This document shows, piece after piece, positions 3,771-64,000 of a stretch of 64,000 nucleotides of DNA. The stretch lies in the sequence record PZ154897.1, one strand, 5' to 3'. Both the position numbers and the translations under genes were made by a program. This DNA is from a phage. Every line of letters starts with the position of its first letter. Position 1 is the first letter of the stretch. The notes beneath the pieces were generated by a model, which was given only the letters and a program-made list of their open reading frames with translations, was not told where the DNA came from and made no database searches.

Positions 3771-4105
3771 TTCATAATCACCAGATAAGCAGATTTAGCA
3801 GTTTCAACACGATAAATTTCGTGACGAAGTTTAGTTATACTTTTAATAACAGAACTAATTATATTCTGCCCATCTTTAAAGCGGTTTTTCTTATCAATAA
3901 AAATTGCGCCAATCATCTTTTTGTGAAGCTCAACCGGATACTTCGTCACAATAATAGCATCATACACAGAAGGATGAATACTGTTCACCAGAGTATCATT
4001 CATTAAAGTTATTCTAATGAACTGTGCTGTTTCAGAGTCAAGCGCTCTATGATCGCCAGTATCATTTTCAAGACAATTATCAATTATATCAGTTAAATTC
4101 ATCAT
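3767..4105 (-). CDS. hypothetical protein (112 aa)
   Basis: ORF overlapping neighbours by 4 nt. Confidence 0.45.
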   Translation of the reverse strand: MMNLTDIIDNCLENDTGDHRALDSETAQFIRITLMNDTLVNSIHPSVYDAIIVTKYPVELHKKMIGAIFIDKKNRFKDGQNIISSVIKSITKLRHEIYRVETAKSAYLVIMK

Positions 4106-14584: not shown

Positions 14585-14896
14585 TTACACCGCCATCTTT
14601 CCTTTAATTGGCGGGTGAGATTCGTAACCTTTAAGAACGAAATCTTTAGGCCTGAGTTTAAGAACATATTTTAATTGTTCTTTAGTAGAAAGATAGCGGA
14701 ATTTATAAGGTAGACCACTTATTACCAGCTCACAAAGCTCTTTAGGTTCACGACGTAAAATTTCTTTACATTGTTCTACGTGATTCATATAGATATGAGT
14801 ATTACCACCAGAAAATATCAAATCTCCTGGAATAAGATTACACATCTTAGCTACAATATGAACTAACGCAGCATATGATGCAATATTAAATGGAAG
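14585..14896 (-). CDS. td: thymidylate synthase, exon 2 (103 codons)
   Basis: LPFNIASYA...HPPIKGKMAV; in-frame continuation of exon 1 after intron removal. Confidence 0.9.
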   Translation of the reverse strand, partial: LPFNIASYAALVHIVAKMCNLIPGDLIFSGGNTHIYMNHVEQCKEILRREPKELCELVISGLPYKFRYLSTKEQLKYVLKLRPKDFVLKGYESHPPIKGKMAV

Positions 14897-15158
14897 CATT
14901 ATGTTCAGATAAGGTCGTTAATCTTATCCCGGAATTATATCCAGCTGCATGTCGCCATGCAGTTCAGACTATATCTTCAACTTGTTAAAGCAAGTTGTCT
15001 ATCGTTTCGAGTCACTTGACCCTACTCCCTAAAGGGATAGTCGTTAGGCATTTATGTAGAACCAAAGTCCTACAATTTAGCACGGGATTGTCTACTAGAG
15101 AGGTTCCCCGTTTAGATAGATTACAAGTATAAGTCACCTTATACTCAGGCCTCAATTA
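14897..15158 (-). ncRNA. group I self-splicing intron in td, 262 nt, no internal ORF
   Basis: starts UAAUUGAGGCCUGAGUAUAAGGUG after exon-1 ...CUUGGGU, ends ...AUCUGAACAUAAUG (terminal G); core matches T4 td intron as recalled, with P6 closed by a short loop instead of the I-TevI ORF. Confidence 0.85.
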
Positions 15159-15706
15159 ACCCAAGAAAACATCTACAGAACGTTGATACCACTGCAAATC
15201 CAAATAGCCATTACGCACATTAAACTGATAGAACATATGACAAGGCGGTAATGCCATATATTTAAGTTCAGCTGGATTCCACGCCGACACAATTTGACGC
15301 CTATCATTCGGCAGTTTTTTAATACGATCAATAACTTCTACAATTTGGTCTACACCGCCAAAATCACGCCACTGTTTTCCATAAATTGGACCAAGTTCAC
15401 CACTATGATATCCTAAATCTTTTGCTTGATTTTCGTAATTTTCATCCCAGACTGTTTTGCCTTGAATTAATGAATCATGCTGAATTAATCGTAAATCATT
15501 TACGTTAGTACTTCCTGACAAAAACCAAAGGAGCTCAGCAATACAAGCTTTCCAGGCGAGCTTCTTAGTCGTTACTGCAGGAAAACCTTTAGTTAAATCC
15601 CAGCGTAATTTAGTACCGAACAGAGCAATTGTTCCTGTGCCTGTTCGATCATCAGTTTCATAACCATTTTCCAGGATATCTTTAATTAAAAATTGGTATT
15701 GTTTCA

Positions 15707-15707
<1 letters not shown>
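15159..15707 (-). CDS. td: thymidylate synthase, exon 1 (183 codons from ATG 15707; ORF track used upstream TTG)
   Basis: MKQYQFLIKDILENGYETDDRTGTGT...; exon1+exon2 = 286 aa like T4 TS. Confidence 0.9.
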
Positions 15708-16736
<1,029 letters not shown>

Positions 16737-17468: not shown

Positions 17469-17696
17469 TTACTGCTCAATAAATCCTGTGTAAAATTCTA
17501 CATCTTCAGCATCCATACCGTCACAATATTCATTAACCATAAATTGTTTAAGACGATTTAAAGGACCTTCAATAACAACTGAAACATTGCAATTAGGATC
17601 ATTTAGTGCGCTTGTAATACGGAGTTCAGGATAACGATTACGAATAATTTCTTCAATATATTCAAAATCAACAACATCAATATCAATTTTAGCCAT
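17469..17696 (-). CDS. hypothetical acidic protein (75 aa) with own SD; also forms the C-terminal part of the gene 32 read-through frame
   Basis: ATG at 17696 preceded by AAGAGGAAAA. Confidence 0.5.
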
Positions 17697-18647
17697 GTTA
17701 TTTTCCTCTTTAATCATCATCAGCAGTATTGCCGATAGTTGTATAGTACCACAGTATGCTTTGGGGTCCGTGTCATCAGCACTAGATGAACTGCCAGAGC
17801 TTGAGCTCATAAAATCATCTTCAGTTTTTGTTTTGAAGTCATCAACATTGAATGCATCCAAATCATCAGCAACTTTATCAGCTTTCTTAGCGGCAGTTGC
17901 TGCGGCACCACCCATAGCAGCAGTTCCCATAACTTGACTGAACTTAGTGCTCAGTTCTTCAAACGATTTGAATTTATCTTTAGAAGTCATTTCAGAAAGG
18001 TCAACCATTTGTTCGAACAGTTCTTTCTGGAAAGATTCATCATCAATGTTTGGAATCGCAGATTGATTCAGGAATTTAGATTCGTCGTAGTTACTAAAAC
18101 CAGAAACTTGTTTAACTTTCAGTACAAAGTTAGCACCTTCCCACGGACAAGTTACATCAACAGGAGTTTCACCCATTTCAACATCAACTGCAATCATTGC
18201 ATTGATTTTATCCCAGATTTTCTTACCGAAACGATATTTAAATACTTTACCTTCATTTTCTGGAGCAGCTGGGTCTTTTACAACAAGAATGTTAGCCCAG
18301 TAAGAAGTTTTACGTTTAACAAGACCGTACTCTTTATTGTCAGTGTTATACAAATCATTTTTACTGATGTACTGACATACTGGACAAGAATCGTAATCAC
18401 CGTAGGTAGATGAGCATGTTTCGATATACCATTTACCATTTTTCTTGAAACCGTGATTTACAAGAAGTGCGAATGGTGCTTGTTCATCATTTTTAGACGG
18501 AAGAAAACGAATTACTGCTTGACCGTTACCCGCATTATCGAGTTTCAGTTTCCACTCGCCTTTATCTTCAGAAGAAAAACCACCTTTATTTCCAGCCAGT
18601 TTAGCCATTTGTGCAGCGAGTTCAGCAGTAGATTTACGTTTAAACAT
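17469..18647 (-). CDS. 32: single-stranded DNA-binding protein gp32; frame lacks a stop at the T4 position and continues to 17469 (392 aa)
   Basis: residues 1-294 match T4 gp32 through ...SSSSADDTD; the last 8 codons and stop of T4 (LDDLLNDL*) are absent and replaced by a promoter-like repeat. Confidence 0.85.
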
Positions 18648-21598: not shown

Positions 21599-24500
21599 AT
21601 GGCCGAGATTAAAAGAAAGTTCAGAGCAGAAGACGGTCTGGACGCAGGTGGCGATAAAATAATCAACGTAGCTTTAGCTGATCGTACCGTAGGAACTGAC
21701 GGTGTTAACGTTGATTACCTAATTCAAGAAAACACAGTTCAACAATACGATCCAACTCGTGGATATTTAAAAGATTTTGTAATCATTTATGATAACCGCT
21801 TTTGGGCTGCTATAAATGATATTCCAAAACCGGCAGGAACTTTTAATAGTGGACGCTGGAGAGCATTGCGTACTGATGCTAACTGGATTACAGTTTCATC
21901 GGGTTCATATCAATTAAAATCTGGTGAAGCTATTTCGGTTAACACTGCAGCCGGTAATGATATTACATTTACTTTACCATCTACCCCAATTGATGGTGAT
22001 ACTATCGTTCTCCAAGACATTGGAGGAAAACCTGGAGTTAACCAAGTTTTAATTGTAGCTCCAGTGCAAAGTATTGTAAACTTCAGAGGTCAGCAAGTAC
22101 GTTCAGTACTAATGACTCATCCAAAATCACAGTTGGTTTTAATTTTTAGTAATCGTCTGTGGCAAATGTATGTTGCTGATTATAGTAGAGAAGCTGTAGT
22201 TGTAACACCAGCGAATACTTATCAAGCGCAATCTAACGATTTTATCGTACGTAGATTTACTTCTGCTGCACCGATTAATATTAAACTTCCGAGATTTGCC
22301 AATCACGGCGATATTATTAATTTCGTCGATTTGGATAAATTAAACCCTCTTTATCATACAATTGTTACTACATACGATGAAACTACTTCAATACAAGAAG
22401 ATGGAACTCATTCTATTGAAGGACGTACATCTATTGATGGTTTCTTGATGTATGACGATAATGAAAAATTGTGGAGATTGTTTGACGGGGACAGTAAAGC
22501 ACGTTTACGTATTATAACAACTAATTCAAATATTCGTCCAAATGAAGAAGTTATGGTATTTGGTGCGAATAATGGAACAACTCAAACAATTGAGCTTCAG
22601 CTTCCAACTAATATTTCTGTTGGTGATACTGTTAAAATTTCCATGAATTACATGCGAAAAGGCCAAACAGTTAAAATCAAAGCTGCCGGTGAAGATAAAA
22701 TTGCTTCTTCAGTTCAATTGCTGCAATTCCCAAAACGTTCAGAATATCCGCCTGAAGCTGAATGGGTAACTGTTCAAGAATTAGTTTTTAACGGTGAAAC
22801 TAATTATGTTCCAGTTTTACAACTTGCTTATATAGAAGATTCTGACGGAAAATACTGGGTTGTACAACAAAACGTTCCAACTGTAGAAAGAGTTGATTCT
22901 TTAAATGATTCTACTAGAGCAAGATTAGGCGTGATTGCTTTAGCTACACAAGCGCAAGCTAATGTCGATTTAGAAAATTCTCCACAAAAAGAATTAGCAA
23001 TTACTCCAGAAACATTAGCTAACCGTACTGCTACAGAAACTCGTAGAGGTATCGCAAGAATAGCAACTACTGCTCAAGTGAATCAGAACACCACATTCTC
23101 TTTTGCTGATGATATTATCATCACTCCTAAAAAGCTGAATGAAAGAACTGCTACAGAAACTCGTAGAGGTGTTGCTGAAATTGCTACGCAACAGGAAACT
23201 AATGCAGGTACTGATGATACTACAATCATCACTCCTAAAAAGCTTCAAGCTCGACAAGGTTCTGAATCATTATCTGGTATTGTAACATTTGTATCTACTG
23301 CAGGAGCTACTCCAGCTTCTAGTCGTGAATTAAATGGTACAAACGTTTATAATAAAAACACTAATAATTTAGTTGTTTCGCCTAAAGCTCTGGATCAGTA
23401 TAAAGCTACTCCAACACAACAAGGTGCAGTAATTTTAGCAGTTGAAAGTGAAGTAATTGCTGGACAAAGCCAAGAAGGATGGGCAAATGCGGTTGTAACG
23501 CCAGAAACGTTACATAAAAAGACATCAACTGATGGAAGAATTGGTTTAATTGAAATTGCTACGCAAAGTGAAGTTAATACAGGAACTGATTATACTCGTG
23601 CAGTCACTCCTAAAACTTTAAATGACCGTATAGCAACTGAAAGTTTAAGTGGTATAGCTGAAATTGCTACACAAGTTGAATTCGACGCAGGCGTCGACGA
23701 TACTCGTATCTCTACACCATTAAAAATTAAAACTAGATTTAATAGTACTGATCGTACTTCTGTTGTTGCTCTATCTGGATTAGTTGAATCAGGAACTCTC
23801 TGGGACCATTATACCCTTAATATTCTTGAAGCAAATGAGACACAACGTGGTACACTTCGTGTAGCTACACAAGTTGAAGCTTCTGCAGGAACATTGGATA
23901 ATGTTTTGATAACTCCTAAAAAGCTTTTAGGTACTAAATCTACTGAAGCACAGGAAGGTGTTATTAAAGTTGCAACTCAGTCTGAAACTGTGACTGGAAC
24001 GTCAGCAAATACTGCTGTATCTCCAAAAAATTTAAAATGGATTGCGCAGAGTGAACCTACTTGGGCAGCTACTACTGCGATAAGAGGCTTTGTTAAAACT
24101 TCATCTGGTTCAATTACATTTGTTGGTAATGATACAGCTGGTTCTACGCAGGACTTAGAGTTATATGAGAAAAATAGCTATGCAGTATCACCATATGAAT
24201 TAAACCGTGTATTAGCAAATTATTTGCCATTAAAAGCAAAAGCCGCTGACACAAATTTATTGGATGGTCTAGATTCATCCCAGTTCATTCGTAGGGATAT
24301 TGCACAGACGGTTAATGGTTCACTAACCTTAACCCAACAAACGAATCTGAGTGCCCCTCTTGTATCATCTAGTACTGCTACGTTTGGCGGATCAGTTTCG
24401 GCAAACAGCACATTAACTATTTCTAATACTGGAACGGCAACTCGTCTGATATTTGAGAAAGGACCTCAAACTGGAACTAACCCAGCGCAGACGATGACTA

Positions 24501-25468
24501 TCAGAGTTTGGGGAAATCAGTTTGGTGGCGGTTCAGATACAACACGTTCTACTGTATTTGAAGTTGGTGATGAAACGTCTAATCACTTTTATTCTCAACG
24601 TAATAAAGCTGGGAATATAACGTTTAGTATCAATGGTACTGTGATGCCGATAAATGTCAATGCTTCGGGTTCTTTGAACGCGAACGGTGTTGCAACATTT
24701 GGTAGTTCAGTTACTGCTAATGGTGAATTCATCAGCAAGTCTGCAAATGCTTTCAGAGCAATAAACGGTGATTACGGATTCTTTATTCGCAACGATGCTG
24801 CTAACACCTATTTTATGCTTACTGCATCGGGTGATCAGACTGGCGGATTTAATGGATTACGTCCTTTAGCTATTAACAATGCATCCGGTCAAGTAACGAT
24901 TGGTGAAAGCTTAATCATTGCCAAAGGTGCTACTATAAATTCAGGTGGTTTAACTGTTAACTCGAGAATTCGTTCTCAGGGCACTAAAACATCTGACTTA
25001 TATACCCGTGCGCCAACATCTGATACTGTAGGATTCTGGTCAATTGACATTAATGATTCAGCTACTTATAACCAGTTCCCAGGTTATTTTAAAATGGTTG
25101 AAAAAACTAATGAAGTGACTGGGCTTCCGTACTTAGAACGTGGCGAAGAAGTTAAATCTCCTGGTACATTAACTCAGTTTGGTAACACACTTGATTCGCT
25201 TTACCAAGATTGGATTACTTATCCAACGACTCCAGAAGCACGTACCACTCGCTGGACACGTACATGGCAGAAAACCAAAAATTCTTGGTCGAGTTTTGTT
25301 CAGGTATTTGATGGAGGTAACCCTCCTCAACCATCTGATATCGGTGCTTTACCATCTGATAATGCTACAATGGGGAATCTTACTATTCGTGATTTCTTAC
25401 GAATTGGTAATGTTCGTATTATTCCTGACCCAGTGAATAAAACGGTTAAATTTGAATGGGTTGAATAA
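21599..25468 (+). CDS. 34: long tail fiber proximal subunit gp34 (1289 aa)
   Basis: same length as T4 gp34; internal ATETRRG...TPKKL repeats. Confidence 0.97.
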   Translation: MAEIKRKFRAEDGLDAGGDKIINVALADRTVGTDGVNVDYLIQENTVQQYDPTRGYLKDFVIIYDNRFWAAINDIPKPAGTFNSGRWRALRTDANWITVSSGSYQLKSGEAISVNTAAGNDITFTLPSTPIDGDTIVLQDIGGKPGVNQVLIVAPVQSIVNFRGQQVRSVLMTHPKSQLVLIFSNRLWQMYVADYSREAVVVTPANTYQAQSNDFIVRRFTSAAPINIKLPRFANHGDIINFVDLDKLNPLYHTIVTTYDETTSIQEDGTHSIEGRTSIDGFLMYDDNEKLWRLFDGDSKARLRIITTNSNIRPNEEVMVFGANNGTTQTIELQLPTNISVGDTVKISMNYMRKGQTVKIKAAGEDKIASSVQLLQFPKRSEYPPEAEWVTVQELVFNGETNYVPVLQLAYIEDSDGKYWVVQQNVPTVERVDSLNDSTRARLGVIALATQAQANVDLENSPQKELAITPETLANRTATETRRGIARIATTAQVNQNTTFSFADDIIITPKKLNERTATETRRGVAEIATQQETNAGTDDTTIITPKKLQARQGSESLSGIVTFVSTAGATPASSRELNGTNVYNKNTNNLVVSPKALDQYKATPTQQGAVILAVESEVIAGQSQEGWANAVVTPETLHKKTSTDGRIGLIEIATQSEVNTGTDYTRAVTPKTLNDRIATESLSGIAEIATQVEFDAGVDDTRISTPLKIKTRFNSTDRTSVVALSGLVESGTLWDHYTLNILEANETQRGTLRVATQVEASAGTLDNVLITPKKLLGTKSTEAQEGVIKVATQSETVTGTSANTAVSPKNLKWIAQSEPTWAATTAIRGFVKTSSGSITFVGNDTAGSTQDLELYEKNSYAVSPYELNRVLANYLPLKAKAADTNLLDGLDSSQFIRRDIAQTVNGSLTLTQQTNLSAPLVSSSTATFGGSVSANSTLTISNTGTATRLIFEKGPQTGTNPAQTMTIRVWGNQFGGGSDTTRSTVFEVGDETSNHFYSQRNKAGNITFSINGTVMPINVNASGSLNANGVATFGSSVTANGEFISKSANAFRAINGDYGFFIRNDAANTYFMLTASGDQTGGFNGLRPLAINNASGQVTIGESLIIAKGATINSGGLTVNSRIRSQGTKTSDLYTRAPTSDTVGFWSIDINDSATYNQFPGYFKMVEKTNEVTGLPYLERGEEVKSPGTLTQFGNTLDSLYQDWITYPTTPEARTTRWTRTWQKTKNSWSSFVQVFDGGNPPQPSDIGALPSDNATMGNLTIRDFLRIGNVRIIPDPVNKTVKFEWVE

Positions 25469-60446: not shown

Positions 60447-60809
60447 TTAAAAGAATTTAAATTTTTTCTTTGACCTTTTATTAAATGCATCTTGTAGTTG
60501 CATTGTAATACATTTTTCTACATGAGGAGCTAACTCAGCTTTTCTTTCTTGGTCAAGAACAGCAAAGTCCATTACAACCTTTCCATCAACCCAATCCAGT
60601 TTAGTTACATACACTATATGTGTAGAACCATCTTCTAGTTTAATGACAATCTCCTGGATAACATTTTCCATGGCAGATTTAATTATCTTAAGAGATTCAT
60701 TAAAAAGACGTTCTTTTCTTTCTTCTTCCCCCTCCGAAGAGGGGGATTCATCGATAATTTCTAGATCTAAATCTAAATCATCTTTATTCATTAAATTCTT
60801 CCATATCAC
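60447..60809 (-). CDS. hypothetical acidic protein (120 aa; gene 40 position)
   Basis: position between uvsX and 41; start uncertain. Confidence 0.4.
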   Translation of the reverse strand: MIWKNLMNKDDLDLDLEIIDESPSSEGEEERKERLFNESLKIIKSAMENVIQEIVIKLEDGSTHIVYVTKLDWVDGKVVMDFAVLDQERKAELAPHVEKCITMQLQDAFNKRSKKKFKFF

Positions 60810-61965
60810 TTAACTGATCTAGGTCAGTTTCTAAATCAGCTGCTGATTTGTTTTTACTTTCTGGAGATTTAAATTTTTCAACCTTTGAGTTAATCAATTC
60901 ATCAACTTCAGCTTCAACAATTTCATTACTATCAATAGCACCTAACTGATAAGCACGTTTAATAGCATCTCGGAATGGCTGATGCTTAAATAAAGGACCC
61001 CAGAATGTAGTGCAGTTGGTATCTTTTGCACGCCAAGATTTTTCTTCGCGAATCATCTCGCCTGTTTCTTCGTCAAGAAATTCACGAGCATACCAGCCAT
61101 TTTTAGGTTTTACTACAAATCCTAATTCAAGAGCCATATCTAACAATCCAGAATAAGGATCGATACCACCGTCAAATTTAACATCAATAAAGAATTTACT
61201 TTTTTCTTTAACAGTACGAGATTTTTCTACATTTAGAACAAATTGATACCCCTGAAGATCAGAACCATCTTTAATCTGGCGCTTACCGATAATGAATACA
61301 GTATCAGCCGAATACATTACGCCTGTACCACCTGTCATCACGGTTTTACTAAACATTTCAATTGTTTCAATTGTATGGTTAACCGCAACACATGGAATAT
61401 TTTTAATGCTAAAATAAGGAGTAACAATACGGAATAATGACTTCAGTGATTTAGCACGAGTCATATCTGCCACAGATTTTTCATTCAAGGCATCTTCCGT
61501 TTCTTTCTTAGAAGCCATATTACCGATTGAGTCGATGAATACAATAACTTTTTCACCGCGCTCAATAGCTTCAAGCTGATTCACCATATCAATTTTCAGC
61601 TGTTCAACTGACTGGATTGGCGTATGAATTACTCGTTCCGGGTCAACCCCCATGGATCGCAAATAAGCTGGAGTAATACCAAATTCACTATCATAGAATA
61701 GACAAACCGCGTCAGGATATTTGTTCAAATATGCCGCAACCATAGTCAAAGACATATTTGATTTAAAGTGTTTAGAAGGCCCTGCGAAAATAGTTAAACC
61801 AGACTGCATACCGCCATCAATCGCACCAGAAATAGCAATATTGAGCATTGGAATTTTTGTACGGATTACATCCTTTTCATTAAAGAATTTAGATGTAGTC
61901 AGTTCAGCAGTCATTTTAGAAGTGGAAGCTTTAATCAAACGGGATTTTAAATCTGCAATAGACAT
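60784..61965 (-). CDS. uvsX: UvsX recombinase, RecA-like (393 aa)
   Basis: MSIADLKSRLIKASTSK...; Walker A GPSKHFKS. Confidence 0.97.
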   Translation of the reverse strand: MSIADLKSRLIKASTSKMTAELTTSKFFNEKDVIRTKIPMLNIAISGAIDGGMQSGLTIFAGPSKHFKSNMSLTMVAAYLNKYPDAVCLFYDSEFGITPAYLRSMGVDPERVIHTPIQSVEQLKIDMVNQLEAIERGEKVIVFIDSIGNMASKKETEDALNEKSVADMTRAKSLKSLFRIVTPYFSIKNIPCVAVNHTIETIEMFSKTVMTGGTGVMYSADTVFIIGKRQIKDGSDLQGYQFVLNVEKSRTVKEKSKFFIDVKFDGGIDPYSGLLDMALELGFVVKPKNGWYAREFLDEETGEMIREEKSWRAKDTNCTTFWGPLFKHQPFRDAIKRAYQLGAIDSNEIVEAEVDELINSKVEKFKSPESKNKSAADLETDLDQLSDMEEFNE

Positions 61966-62042
61966 TCATTTTTTCCATAGGCATCATTATATTTTCCTCA
62001 CTGGTTAAAGATAGAGTAATTATAACACAATAAATTTAGGCA

Positions 62043-62891
62043 TTAATCAACCGCTATTGGATGAATAGCATTAAACTTATGAAACGCTTCTGATTTTTCT
62101 TTGCGCGAAACACACATGCGAAGAACCTTTAATGGCTCGTCTTCTTCACCCAACGATTTTCGTTTTTCAATATTAGAAGTTTTCCAACGAGCTTGCTCTG
62201 GAAACTCTTTATTGATTTGCTCAAGAGCTCTATTATGTTTTGAATTACTACGAATTGAGCTGCATCCACCGGGAGCCTGCGCTTTTCCAGATACAACCAA
62301 ATATTTGAACAAGGCCAAATGCGGATAACCTTGATTAATTAAATTGAGAAATGCATACATATCTTCGCATAAATCAATTTTTCCATACCCAATTTGTTCT
62401 GTTGTAAGTTTTCCAAGGTCATACCATGTATTCGTGAATCCATATGAATTTTCACGGTAATTACCCCAAGATGAAGTAATTTTAAAAATAGGTAGACGAG
62501 CATGGCCATGATAATACCCGCAATCCATGGCATCTTCAACGTATTGAATCAATTCATAGAACTGCTCACGGGTTAACTGATTAATTTTATCTACGCAGCG
62601 ACGATCATCTTTCTTTCGCATTGAACTCATACGAATAGTAGTATCATCATCAATCATCCAAATTCGTTGACCTGCATACATATCAGTAATCGCTTTACGA
62701 GTACCAGCAATTCCATTGACATCATCAGGAATAGTTATAATTTTAGCTCTAGACCCATAGGCATCATAATAAGCTTTTTCTTCATGTTCACGCACTACAA
62801 TATGGGGTTCATAATCAGTCGGAAACATATCAAGGGCAGAAACTGCCCCTACACGTTGATAACTTGGAATTACAAATTGAATCATTTCCAC
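62043..62891 (-). CDS. putative glycosyltransferase (282 aa), GT-A-like, at the beta-gt locus
   Basis: hydrophobic stretch then DDD (IWMIDDDTTI) typical of a DxD motif; does not resemble T4 beta-gt as I recall it. Confidence 0.5.
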   Translation of the reverse strand: MEMIQFVIPSYQRVGAVSALDMFPTDYEPHIVVREHEEKAYYDAYGSRAKIITIPDDVNGIAGTRKAITDMYAGQRIWMIDDDTTIRMSSMRKKDDRRCVDKINQLTREQFYELIQYVEDAMDCGYYHGHARLPIFKITSSWGNYRENSYGFTNTWYDLGKLTTEQIGYGKIDLCEDMYAFLNLINQGYPHLALFKYLVVSGKAQAPGGCSSIRSNSKHNRALEQINKEFPEQARWKTSNIEKRKSLGEEDEPLKVLRMCVSRKEKSEAFHKFNAIHPIAVD

Positions 62892-63622
62892 TCACCGTTA
62901 TAATCTTTTTTCATAATATGAGTTTCGCCAGTATTCCACCAATGATCAACCAAGTAAAAATGACGAGAATATACATGAAGACTTCCAACATTCCATATAA
63001 TAGAACCTGCTTTATACTGACGAGTTGAATCGCCTGCATTCAAATCAGATACTAATTTATCTAATACGTATTTTTGCCATGCATAATCATTACGGAATCC
63101 GAAGACCACGTCATTTGAGCGCATGCTTACTACTGCATTGACTTTCTTATCACGAATCAGGTACTGTACTGTATTAGTACACATGAAATCTGACATGCCA
63201 TCTTTATTGTAGTCAAACTGCATAGATGGACGAGTATAAATCATGATACCACGTCGAGAATCAGGATTTTGACCAAGTTCAGCTAAACACATGTCATATT
63301 GAGCATAGTTATCTTCTGACCAGATAGCCCAACCATAATTCGAGTTAATTTCACCTTTAGAAGATGCTACCTGTTGCCAAATCTTTGGTGTTTCACCTGG
63401 AATATCTTTAACAAACAGACTTTGAGACTTGTACCATTCAAGTTCACGCTGAATGTATTCATCATTAAGAGCGCCAAAAATAAACGGTTCATCTGCTACA
63501 AATGATGCGCCAATAATTTCAATAGTTTTAACACCAGTTTTATCAACTACGAAATCTTTTTCCTTTAATGCAGTTCCCAAATGAAGACGGATTTCTTCAA
63601 CTGTCATAGAGTCACTAATCAT
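62882..63622 (-). CDS. 42: dCMP hydroxymethylase gp42 (246 aa)
   Basis: thymidylate-synthase-like fold, 246 aa as in T4. Confidence 0.95.
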   Translation of the reverse strand: MISDSMTVEEIRLHLGTALKEKDFVVDKTGVKTIEIIGASFVADEPFIFGALNDEYIQRELEWYKSQSLFVKDIPGETPKIWQQVASSKGEINSNYGWAIWSEDNYAQYDMCLAELGQNPDSRRGIMIYTRPSMQFDYNKDGMSDFMCTNTVQYLIRDKKVNAVVSMRSNDVVFGFRNDYAWQKYVLDKLVSDLNAGDSTRQYKAGSIIWNVGSLHVYSRHFYLVDHWWNTGETHIMKKDYNGEWK

Positions 63623-63629
63623 TTAAACC

Positions 63630-63779
63630 TCAATTGATACATTCATATTTAACTTGTAACAGTAATAAACCCCAACCTAAAATAATAGTTGGAATCATAA
63701 GAGGAACCGTTACACTATAGTATATACTTATTATAATCATCAAGATTAAAAGCAATGCTGATATAATTTTGCTTTTCAT
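63630..63779 (-). CDS. small hydrophobic membrane protein (49 aa)
   Basis: ATG overlaps upstream stop (ATGA). Confidence 0.35.
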   Translation of the reverse strand: MKSKIISALLLILMIIISIYYSVTVPLMIPTIILGWGLLLLQVKYECIN

Positions 63780-63997
63780 TCCTTCTCTCTGATGATAATT
63801 ACCTGATTTGGCTGCGCAGACTTTTTAGTTTCACCTGCAATTGACCAAATAAATGTAATAAACCAACCAATAATTGACCAGTTAAACAGTAAAGATGTGA
63901 AAAAGATTCCTACTGTCGATTTTGACCCACGCATCAAGGCGATAAACCATGGAAGCATGTATATAATAATAGCCAACACGCCTGAAACTAAAACCAC
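63776..63997 (-). CDS. membrane protein (73 aa), Imm-like by position
   Basis: two TM helices; located next to gene 42 where T4 encodes imm. Confidence 0.45.
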   Translation of the reverse strand: MVLVSGVLAIIIYMLPWFIALMRGSKSTVGIFFTSLLFNWSIIGWFITFIWSIAGETKKSAQPNQVIIIREKE

Positions 63998-64000
63998 AAA

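Follow-up and report, generated by a model that had tools for sequence, protein, structure and literature searches.

A gene between uvsX and gene 42 of a Tequatrovirus that almost certainly encodes a T2/T6-type beta-glucosyl-HMC-alpha-glucosyltransferase

Phage T4 carries a 351-aa beta-glucosyltransferase gene (beta-gt), accompanied by the homing endonuclease gene segA, in the interval between uvsX and gene 42. In the stretch of DNA analysed here (64,000 nucleotides of the phage sequence record PZ154897.1, hereafter the window), this interval holds a different open reading frame (ORF), and no segA was found between it and uvsX. Which enzyme occupies the locus, and which sugars would the phage DNA carry as a result? 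An earlier sequence-only reading of the window had made the same comparison with T4, correctly as to T4, and had proposed either a beta-alpha-glucosyltransferase of the T2/T6 type or another hmC-sugar transferase. It had placed the ORF between uvsX and gene 42, which the Pfam matches of both flanking genes bear out. The features of the locus are as follows.

60784..61965, minus strand: uvsX recombinase, downstream neighbour (Pfam T4_UVSX_C, E 4.7e-39, plus RecA)
62043..62885, minus strand: predicted beta-alpha-gt/TAGT coding sequence, 280 aa plus stop, start as annotated in relatives
62643..62651, minus strand: DXD (DDD) motif, codons D79-D80-D81, after the hydrophobic strand I75-W-M-I78
62882..62896, minus strand: predicted translational coupling junction, read from the sequence and conserved in T2, T6 and N2
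62882..63622, minus strand: gene 42, dCMP hydroxymethylase, upstream neighbour (Pfam PF00303 Thymidylat_synt, E 1.2e-15)

The ORF is uninterrupted from 62043 to 62891 (minus strand) and has 282 aa if read from the in-frame GTG at 62891; its translation in the ORF listing includes ...GQRIWMIDDDTTIRM... and ...AGQRIWMIDDDTTIRM.... The 282-aa frame reported by the sequence-only reading is thus real, but its start has to be moved two codons downstream, to the ATG at 62885, giving a product of 280 aa. This ATG is the annotated start in the T2, N2, PP01, Solly and BGP orthologues. A GGTGAG Shine-Dalgarno sequence (62891-62896) lies 5 nt upstream of the ATG (62883-62885), which overlaps the TGA stop of gene 42 (62882-62884) as ATGA. 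We compared the codons of the gene with those of seven relatives: synonymous and non-synonymous differences numbered 34:0 against PP01, 38:5 against T2 and 43:7 against T6, with 34:3 and 38:8 in further pairs. The large excess of synonymous differences argues that the gene is functional and under purifying selection. Judged from its sequence, the ORF at 62043..62885 is clearly a real gene.

A scan for promoters and terminators across 60500-64000 gave results at chance level (12 found against 14.5 expected, and 2 against 1.5). It flagged a 9-bp hairpin (GGGGCAG-TTT-CTGCCC plus flanking pairs) at 62831-62851 on the minus strand, within codons 12-18 of the transferase gene; this hairpin is conserved in T2, T6 and N2.

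The order and orientation of uvsX, the transferase gene and gene 42 are the same in T2, T6, N2, IME537, Solly, BGP and PP01, and all relatives have gene 42 annotated as dCMP hydroxymethylase. A 49-aa ORF (63630-63779, minus strand) with two hydrophobic segments (MKSKIISALLLILMIIISIYYSVTVPLMIPTIILGWGLLLLQVKYECIN) fills the stretch between gene 42 and imm, with a 4-nt overlap on the imm stop. About 36 residues at its C-terminus are conserved in T4, T2, T6, PP01, N2 and IME537, where they carry no annotation, and its counterpart in Solly and BGP is labelled only "Phage protein". It is possibly an under-annotated small membrane protein beside the superinfection-immunity genes.

HMM searches with the transferase matched glycosyltransferase families. 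PHROG 842 ("beta-glucosyl-HMC-alpha-glucosyltransferase") matched over the full protein length with E 1.2e-89, and Pfam PF20691 (TET-associated glycosyltransferase, TAGT) matched with 38.8 bits, above its curated cut-off of 27.5 bits, with the whole 205-position profile covered. In direct comparison, the 280-aa product was 98.2% identical to its counterpart in T2, 97.5% to that in T6, 98.9% in Solly, 97.2% in BGP and 100% in PP01. The PP01 orthologue is annotated "b-gt: beta-glucosyl-HMC-alpha-glucosyl-transferase", and is only 96% identical in DNA despite the identical protein. Full-length homology with both the T2/T6 enzymes and the profile thus places the protein in the TAGT family. We also considered the T4-type beta-gt family (GT-B, PF09198) and rejected it: the best BLASTP E-value against T4 beta-gt was 3.4, the Pfam search of the protein gave no PF09198 match, and tblastn found no match to T4 beta-gt anywhere in the 64-kb window.

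The sequence-only reading had taken a hydrophobic stretch followed by DDD as the signature of a GT-A fold. In an alignment of nine sequences, a shallow one drawn from 11 homologues in a large protein database (identities 78-32%), DDD is invariant down to 32% identity. The N-terminal IPSY.R, the D175 of a CED motif and G206-G207-x-S209-x-x-R212 do not vary either. AlphaFold2 run on the single sequence reached a pLDDT of 39.7, too low to use, and we therefore worked with an alignment-based model, which is moderately confident (pLDDT 70.5, pTM 0.72). Its N-terminal nucleotide-binding half has pLDDT 81-94, and two loops, residues 127-151 and 193-211, fall below 50. The DDD follows directly after a predicted strand (74-77), and the model matches GT-A enzymes, in agreement with the earlier reading of the motif. 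A GT-A fold with a conserved DXD is as expected for a TAGT member, and on the model the transferase is predicted to be a GT-A-fold, GT2-like enzyme.

Sequence and profile searches of the PDB found no solved structure for the TAGT family. The direct sequence search returned chance matches only (E about 1), to RNA-binding proteins whose His-tags match an HGH in the transferase. A profile of the nine-sequence alignment gave one sub-threshold match (E 0.25), to the GT2 beta-glucosyltransferase AvpGT (9jma); this weak match pairs IPSYqR with IPTYNR and WMLDDD with FLDDDD.

Together with the synteny, motif conservation and purifying selection observed here, the 98% identity to the T2 and T6 enzymes, the PHROG 842 and PF20691 matches, the GT-A fold and the DDD indicate that the gene almost certainly encodes the T2/T6-type beta-glucosyl-HMC-alpha-glucosyltransferase (beta-alpha-gt, ggt or TAGT), the enzyme of the second glucose, with the reaction and DNA pattern that go with it. 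The first of the two earlier proposals is thus supported.

The enzyme is widespread. A megablast search with the locus matched 591 phage records, nearly all Tequatrovirus, and tblastn with the transferase matched 690 records, 472 of them at 95% identity or more; a second group, at 60-80% identity, comes from Klebsiella and Enterobacter phages. T4-type beta-gt at 90% identity or more was found in only 29 phage records, compared with about 470 for the enzyme in the window. By these record counts, and as reported (PMC13216743), most Tequatroviruses have the beta-alpha-gt genotype, and T4 is the exception. Since hundreds of sequenced T4-like phages carry the enzyme nearly unchanged, the gene is an ordinary one. 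Enzyme, locus, fold and product have all been described already, and our analysis adds nothing to current knowledge of them; it is of use only for annotating and typing the phage and for predicting its DNA sugar pattern.

Several public records of the locus show irregularities. In the T6 record MH550421.1, at about 3951-3953 in locus coordinates, codon 10 of the ggt orthologue reads TAG instead of CAA; the annotated gene starts at Met20 and gives a protein of 261 aa, which would lose the first beta-strand (IQFVIPSY). The TAG, which is odd given that T6 is the reference phage for 72% gentiobiosylation, may have arisen by mutation in the stock or from an error in sequencing. RB55 (KM607002.1) has at 24367-25419 a gene with 100% identity to T4 beta-gt that is mislabelled "beta-glucosyl-HMC-alpha-glucosyl-transferase". 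Several records also call the TAGT gene "beta-glucosyltransferase", and annotations often confuse these two unrelated enzymes of the locus.

Overall, the window belongs to an ordinary Tequatrovirus of mosaic make-up and shares 95-97% identity with many genomes; it has two further peculiarities. Gene 32 (ssDNA-binding protein; 17469..18647, minus strand) is a 392-aa ORF instead of one of about 301 aa. Alignment with phage N2 showed a clean 107-nt deletion (junction near 17764/17765) that takes out the last 8 codons of gp32 (LDDLLNDL, the acidic C-terminal tail), the stop, a hairpin-plus-T-run terminator and a spacer, and fuses gp32 in frame to a downstream small ORF. Phage phiC600P9 has the same junction, annotated as a 1179-nt ssDNA-binding protein gene, and vB_Eco-B1.1 probably shares the fusion; most relatives are without it. 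Since the C-terminus of gp32 mediates contacts with replication proteins, it is curious that a phage with such a fusion should be viable. The thymidylate synthase gene td is split by a group I intron (about 14897-15158, minus strand; Rfam RF00028 match at 14945-15168, 76 bits, E 1.6e-17) into exon ORFs at 15156..15719 and 14585..14899. At only about 260 nt, this intron is too short for a homing endonuclease ORF; that of T4 td, about 1 kb long, encodes I-TevI.

In T2 and T6, alpha-gt glucosylates hmC in DNA and a second enzyme then adds a beta-1,6 glucose, giving alpha-gentiobiosyl-hmC (PMC13216743, PMC13390438). From this literature on near-identical enzymes, we infer by analogy the reaction of the window enzyme, which would be the same as that of the T2/T6 enzymes, and the modification pattern of the phage DNA. 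Gene 42 would be the source of the hmC precursor, and so of the hmC in phage DNA on which the glucosyltransferases ultimately act. After replication, alpha-gt would first alpha-glucosylate this hmC; the transferase, with UDP-glucose as donor, would then link a second glucose beta-1,6 to the alpha-glucosyl-hmC, yielding alpha-gentiobiosyl-hmC. A beta product from an alpha-linked donor means that the anomeric configuration would be inverted. On the model, DDD may bind the diphosphate of UDP and a divalent metal, and the enzyme would then be a metal-dependent transferase that contacts UDP-glucose through this motif. We found no match to alpha-gt in the 64-kb window by tblastn; in the nearest genome, IME537, alpha-gt has genes 47 and 55 as neighbours and lies about 11 kb further on than the window reaches, so its presence in this phage is suggested by the relatives.

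With T4 beta-gt missing, the DNA should carry hmC, alpha-glucosyl-hmC and alpha-gentiobiosyl-hmC, and no beta-glucosyl-hmC; these are the most probable sugars that the gene indicates. Such a pattern has precedent: LC-MS has already shown gentiobiosyl-hmC in place of beta-glucosyl-hmC in phages whose enzymes are 97-99% identical to this one (PMC13390438). In Solly, NR1 and CP, of the Durham collection, hmC made up about a third and alpha-gentiobiosyl-hmC about two thirds, BGP had hmC, glucosyl- and gentiobiosyl-hmC at about 1:2:2, and beta-glucosyl-hmC was found in none of them (PMC13390438). These phages recur among our database matches with near-identical transferase genes. The sugar pattern bears on sensitivity to modification-dependent defences, among them enzymes of the GmrSD/BrxU type and to the alpha-glucosyl-specific glycosylase Brig1 (PMC13216743, PMC13390438).

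How much gentiobiosyl-hmC the gene would produce is a separate matter. The share of cytosines that it replaces is about 5% in T2 but about 72% in T6 (PMC13390438), despite enzymes that are about 98% identical, so the degree of diglucosylation is not predictable from sequence. The gene might therefore contribute little here, as in T2, whose enzyme is also 98% identical to ours, leaving a pattern of essentially alpha-monoglucosyl-hmC and free hmC; the allele in the window differs from that of T2 at 5 residues and from that of the high-gentiobiosyl Solly at 3, which gives no level. We regard so small a contribution as unlikely, because the strong purifying selection speaks for an important function, and because all ten Durham Tequatroviruses measured had 40-67% gentiobiosyl-hmC (PMC13390438), next to which the T2 level looks like the exception. 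It is very improbable that the K92/I101/K226 allele, which PP01 shares, sets a level of its own, unlike those of T2 (about 5%), the BGP type (about 40%) and the T6/Solly type (about 67-72%); expression, alpha-gt or other genes could just as well determine the level. The few variable residues of this otherwise invariant enzyme are at positions 11, 40, 55, 92, 101, 106, 226 and 251; if they do control the level, a comparison of alleles could explain the long-noted difference between T2 and T6.

A transferase of the same family might also use another sugar (e.g., arabinose, as in RB69-type phages) or another acceptor (beta-glucosyl-hmC or bare hmC), with a modification unlike that of T2 and T6. 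TAGT homologues do occur beside beta-GT or without any other glycosyltransferase, acceptors may differ among members (PMC13216743), and distant homologues at 48-66% identity are found in Serratia, Klebsiella and Enterobacter phages. The window protein, however, is no distant member. With 98-100% identity to the T2, T6 and PP01 enzymes, it lends no support to the other hmC-sugar transferase of the earlier proposal, and we rejected an arabinosyl- or other sugar transferase on the identity to T2 and T6. Phages whose enzymes differ from it at 3-8 residues have gentiobiosyl-hmC by LC-MS (PMC13390438), and the nearest genome pairs the enzyme with alpha-gt, not with beta-gt, all of which makes a different specificity extremely unlikely. 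That the ORF is a decayed, non-functional remnant is scarcely conceivable: the TAG at codon 10 of the public T6 record does indicate that disrupted alleles occur in some stocks, but the ORF here runs unbroken between the conserved ATG and the conserved stop and has all family-invariant residues. A pseudogene is further at odds with the T2/T6 identity and with dS far above dN, down to the complete lack of non-synonymous changes among the 34 differences from PP01, and was rejected.

The T2/T6-type beta-alpha-glucosyltransferase thus remains the preferred assignment, and the T2 and T6 enzymes are its closest known counterparts: both have 280 aa, a start that overlaps the gene 42 stop and a place between uvsX and gene 42, all as in the window. 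K92, I101 and K226 of the window enzyme are R, V and R in both T2 and T6, and R11 and P251 are H and S in T2 alone; the substitutions are few and conservative, and their sequence suggests no functional difference. The GT2-type GT-A enzymes (AvpGT 9jma, TarP 6h1j and bacterial cellulose synthase 9fmv) are far more remote, at 7-17% identity, below sequence significance. They act on lipid-linked, teichoic-acid or polysaccharide acceptors, whereas the transferase here would place its sugar on DNA, and they offer no confident counterpart for its C-terminal 100 residues or so. T4 beta-gt (structure PDB 1JG7, cited in PMC13216743) sits at the corresponding position, with gene 42 upstream and uvsX downstream, and it too takes glucose from UDP-glucose, makes a beta linkage and has phage hmC DNA as its substrate (PMC13216743). 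It is, however, a GT-B enzyme of PF09198 with 351 aa, in contrast to the predicted GT-A fold and 280 aa of the window transferase, and the two share no detectable sequence similarity. The acceptor of T4 beta-gt is bare hmC in DNA, whereas that of the T2/T6-type enzyme is alpha-glucosyl-hmC.
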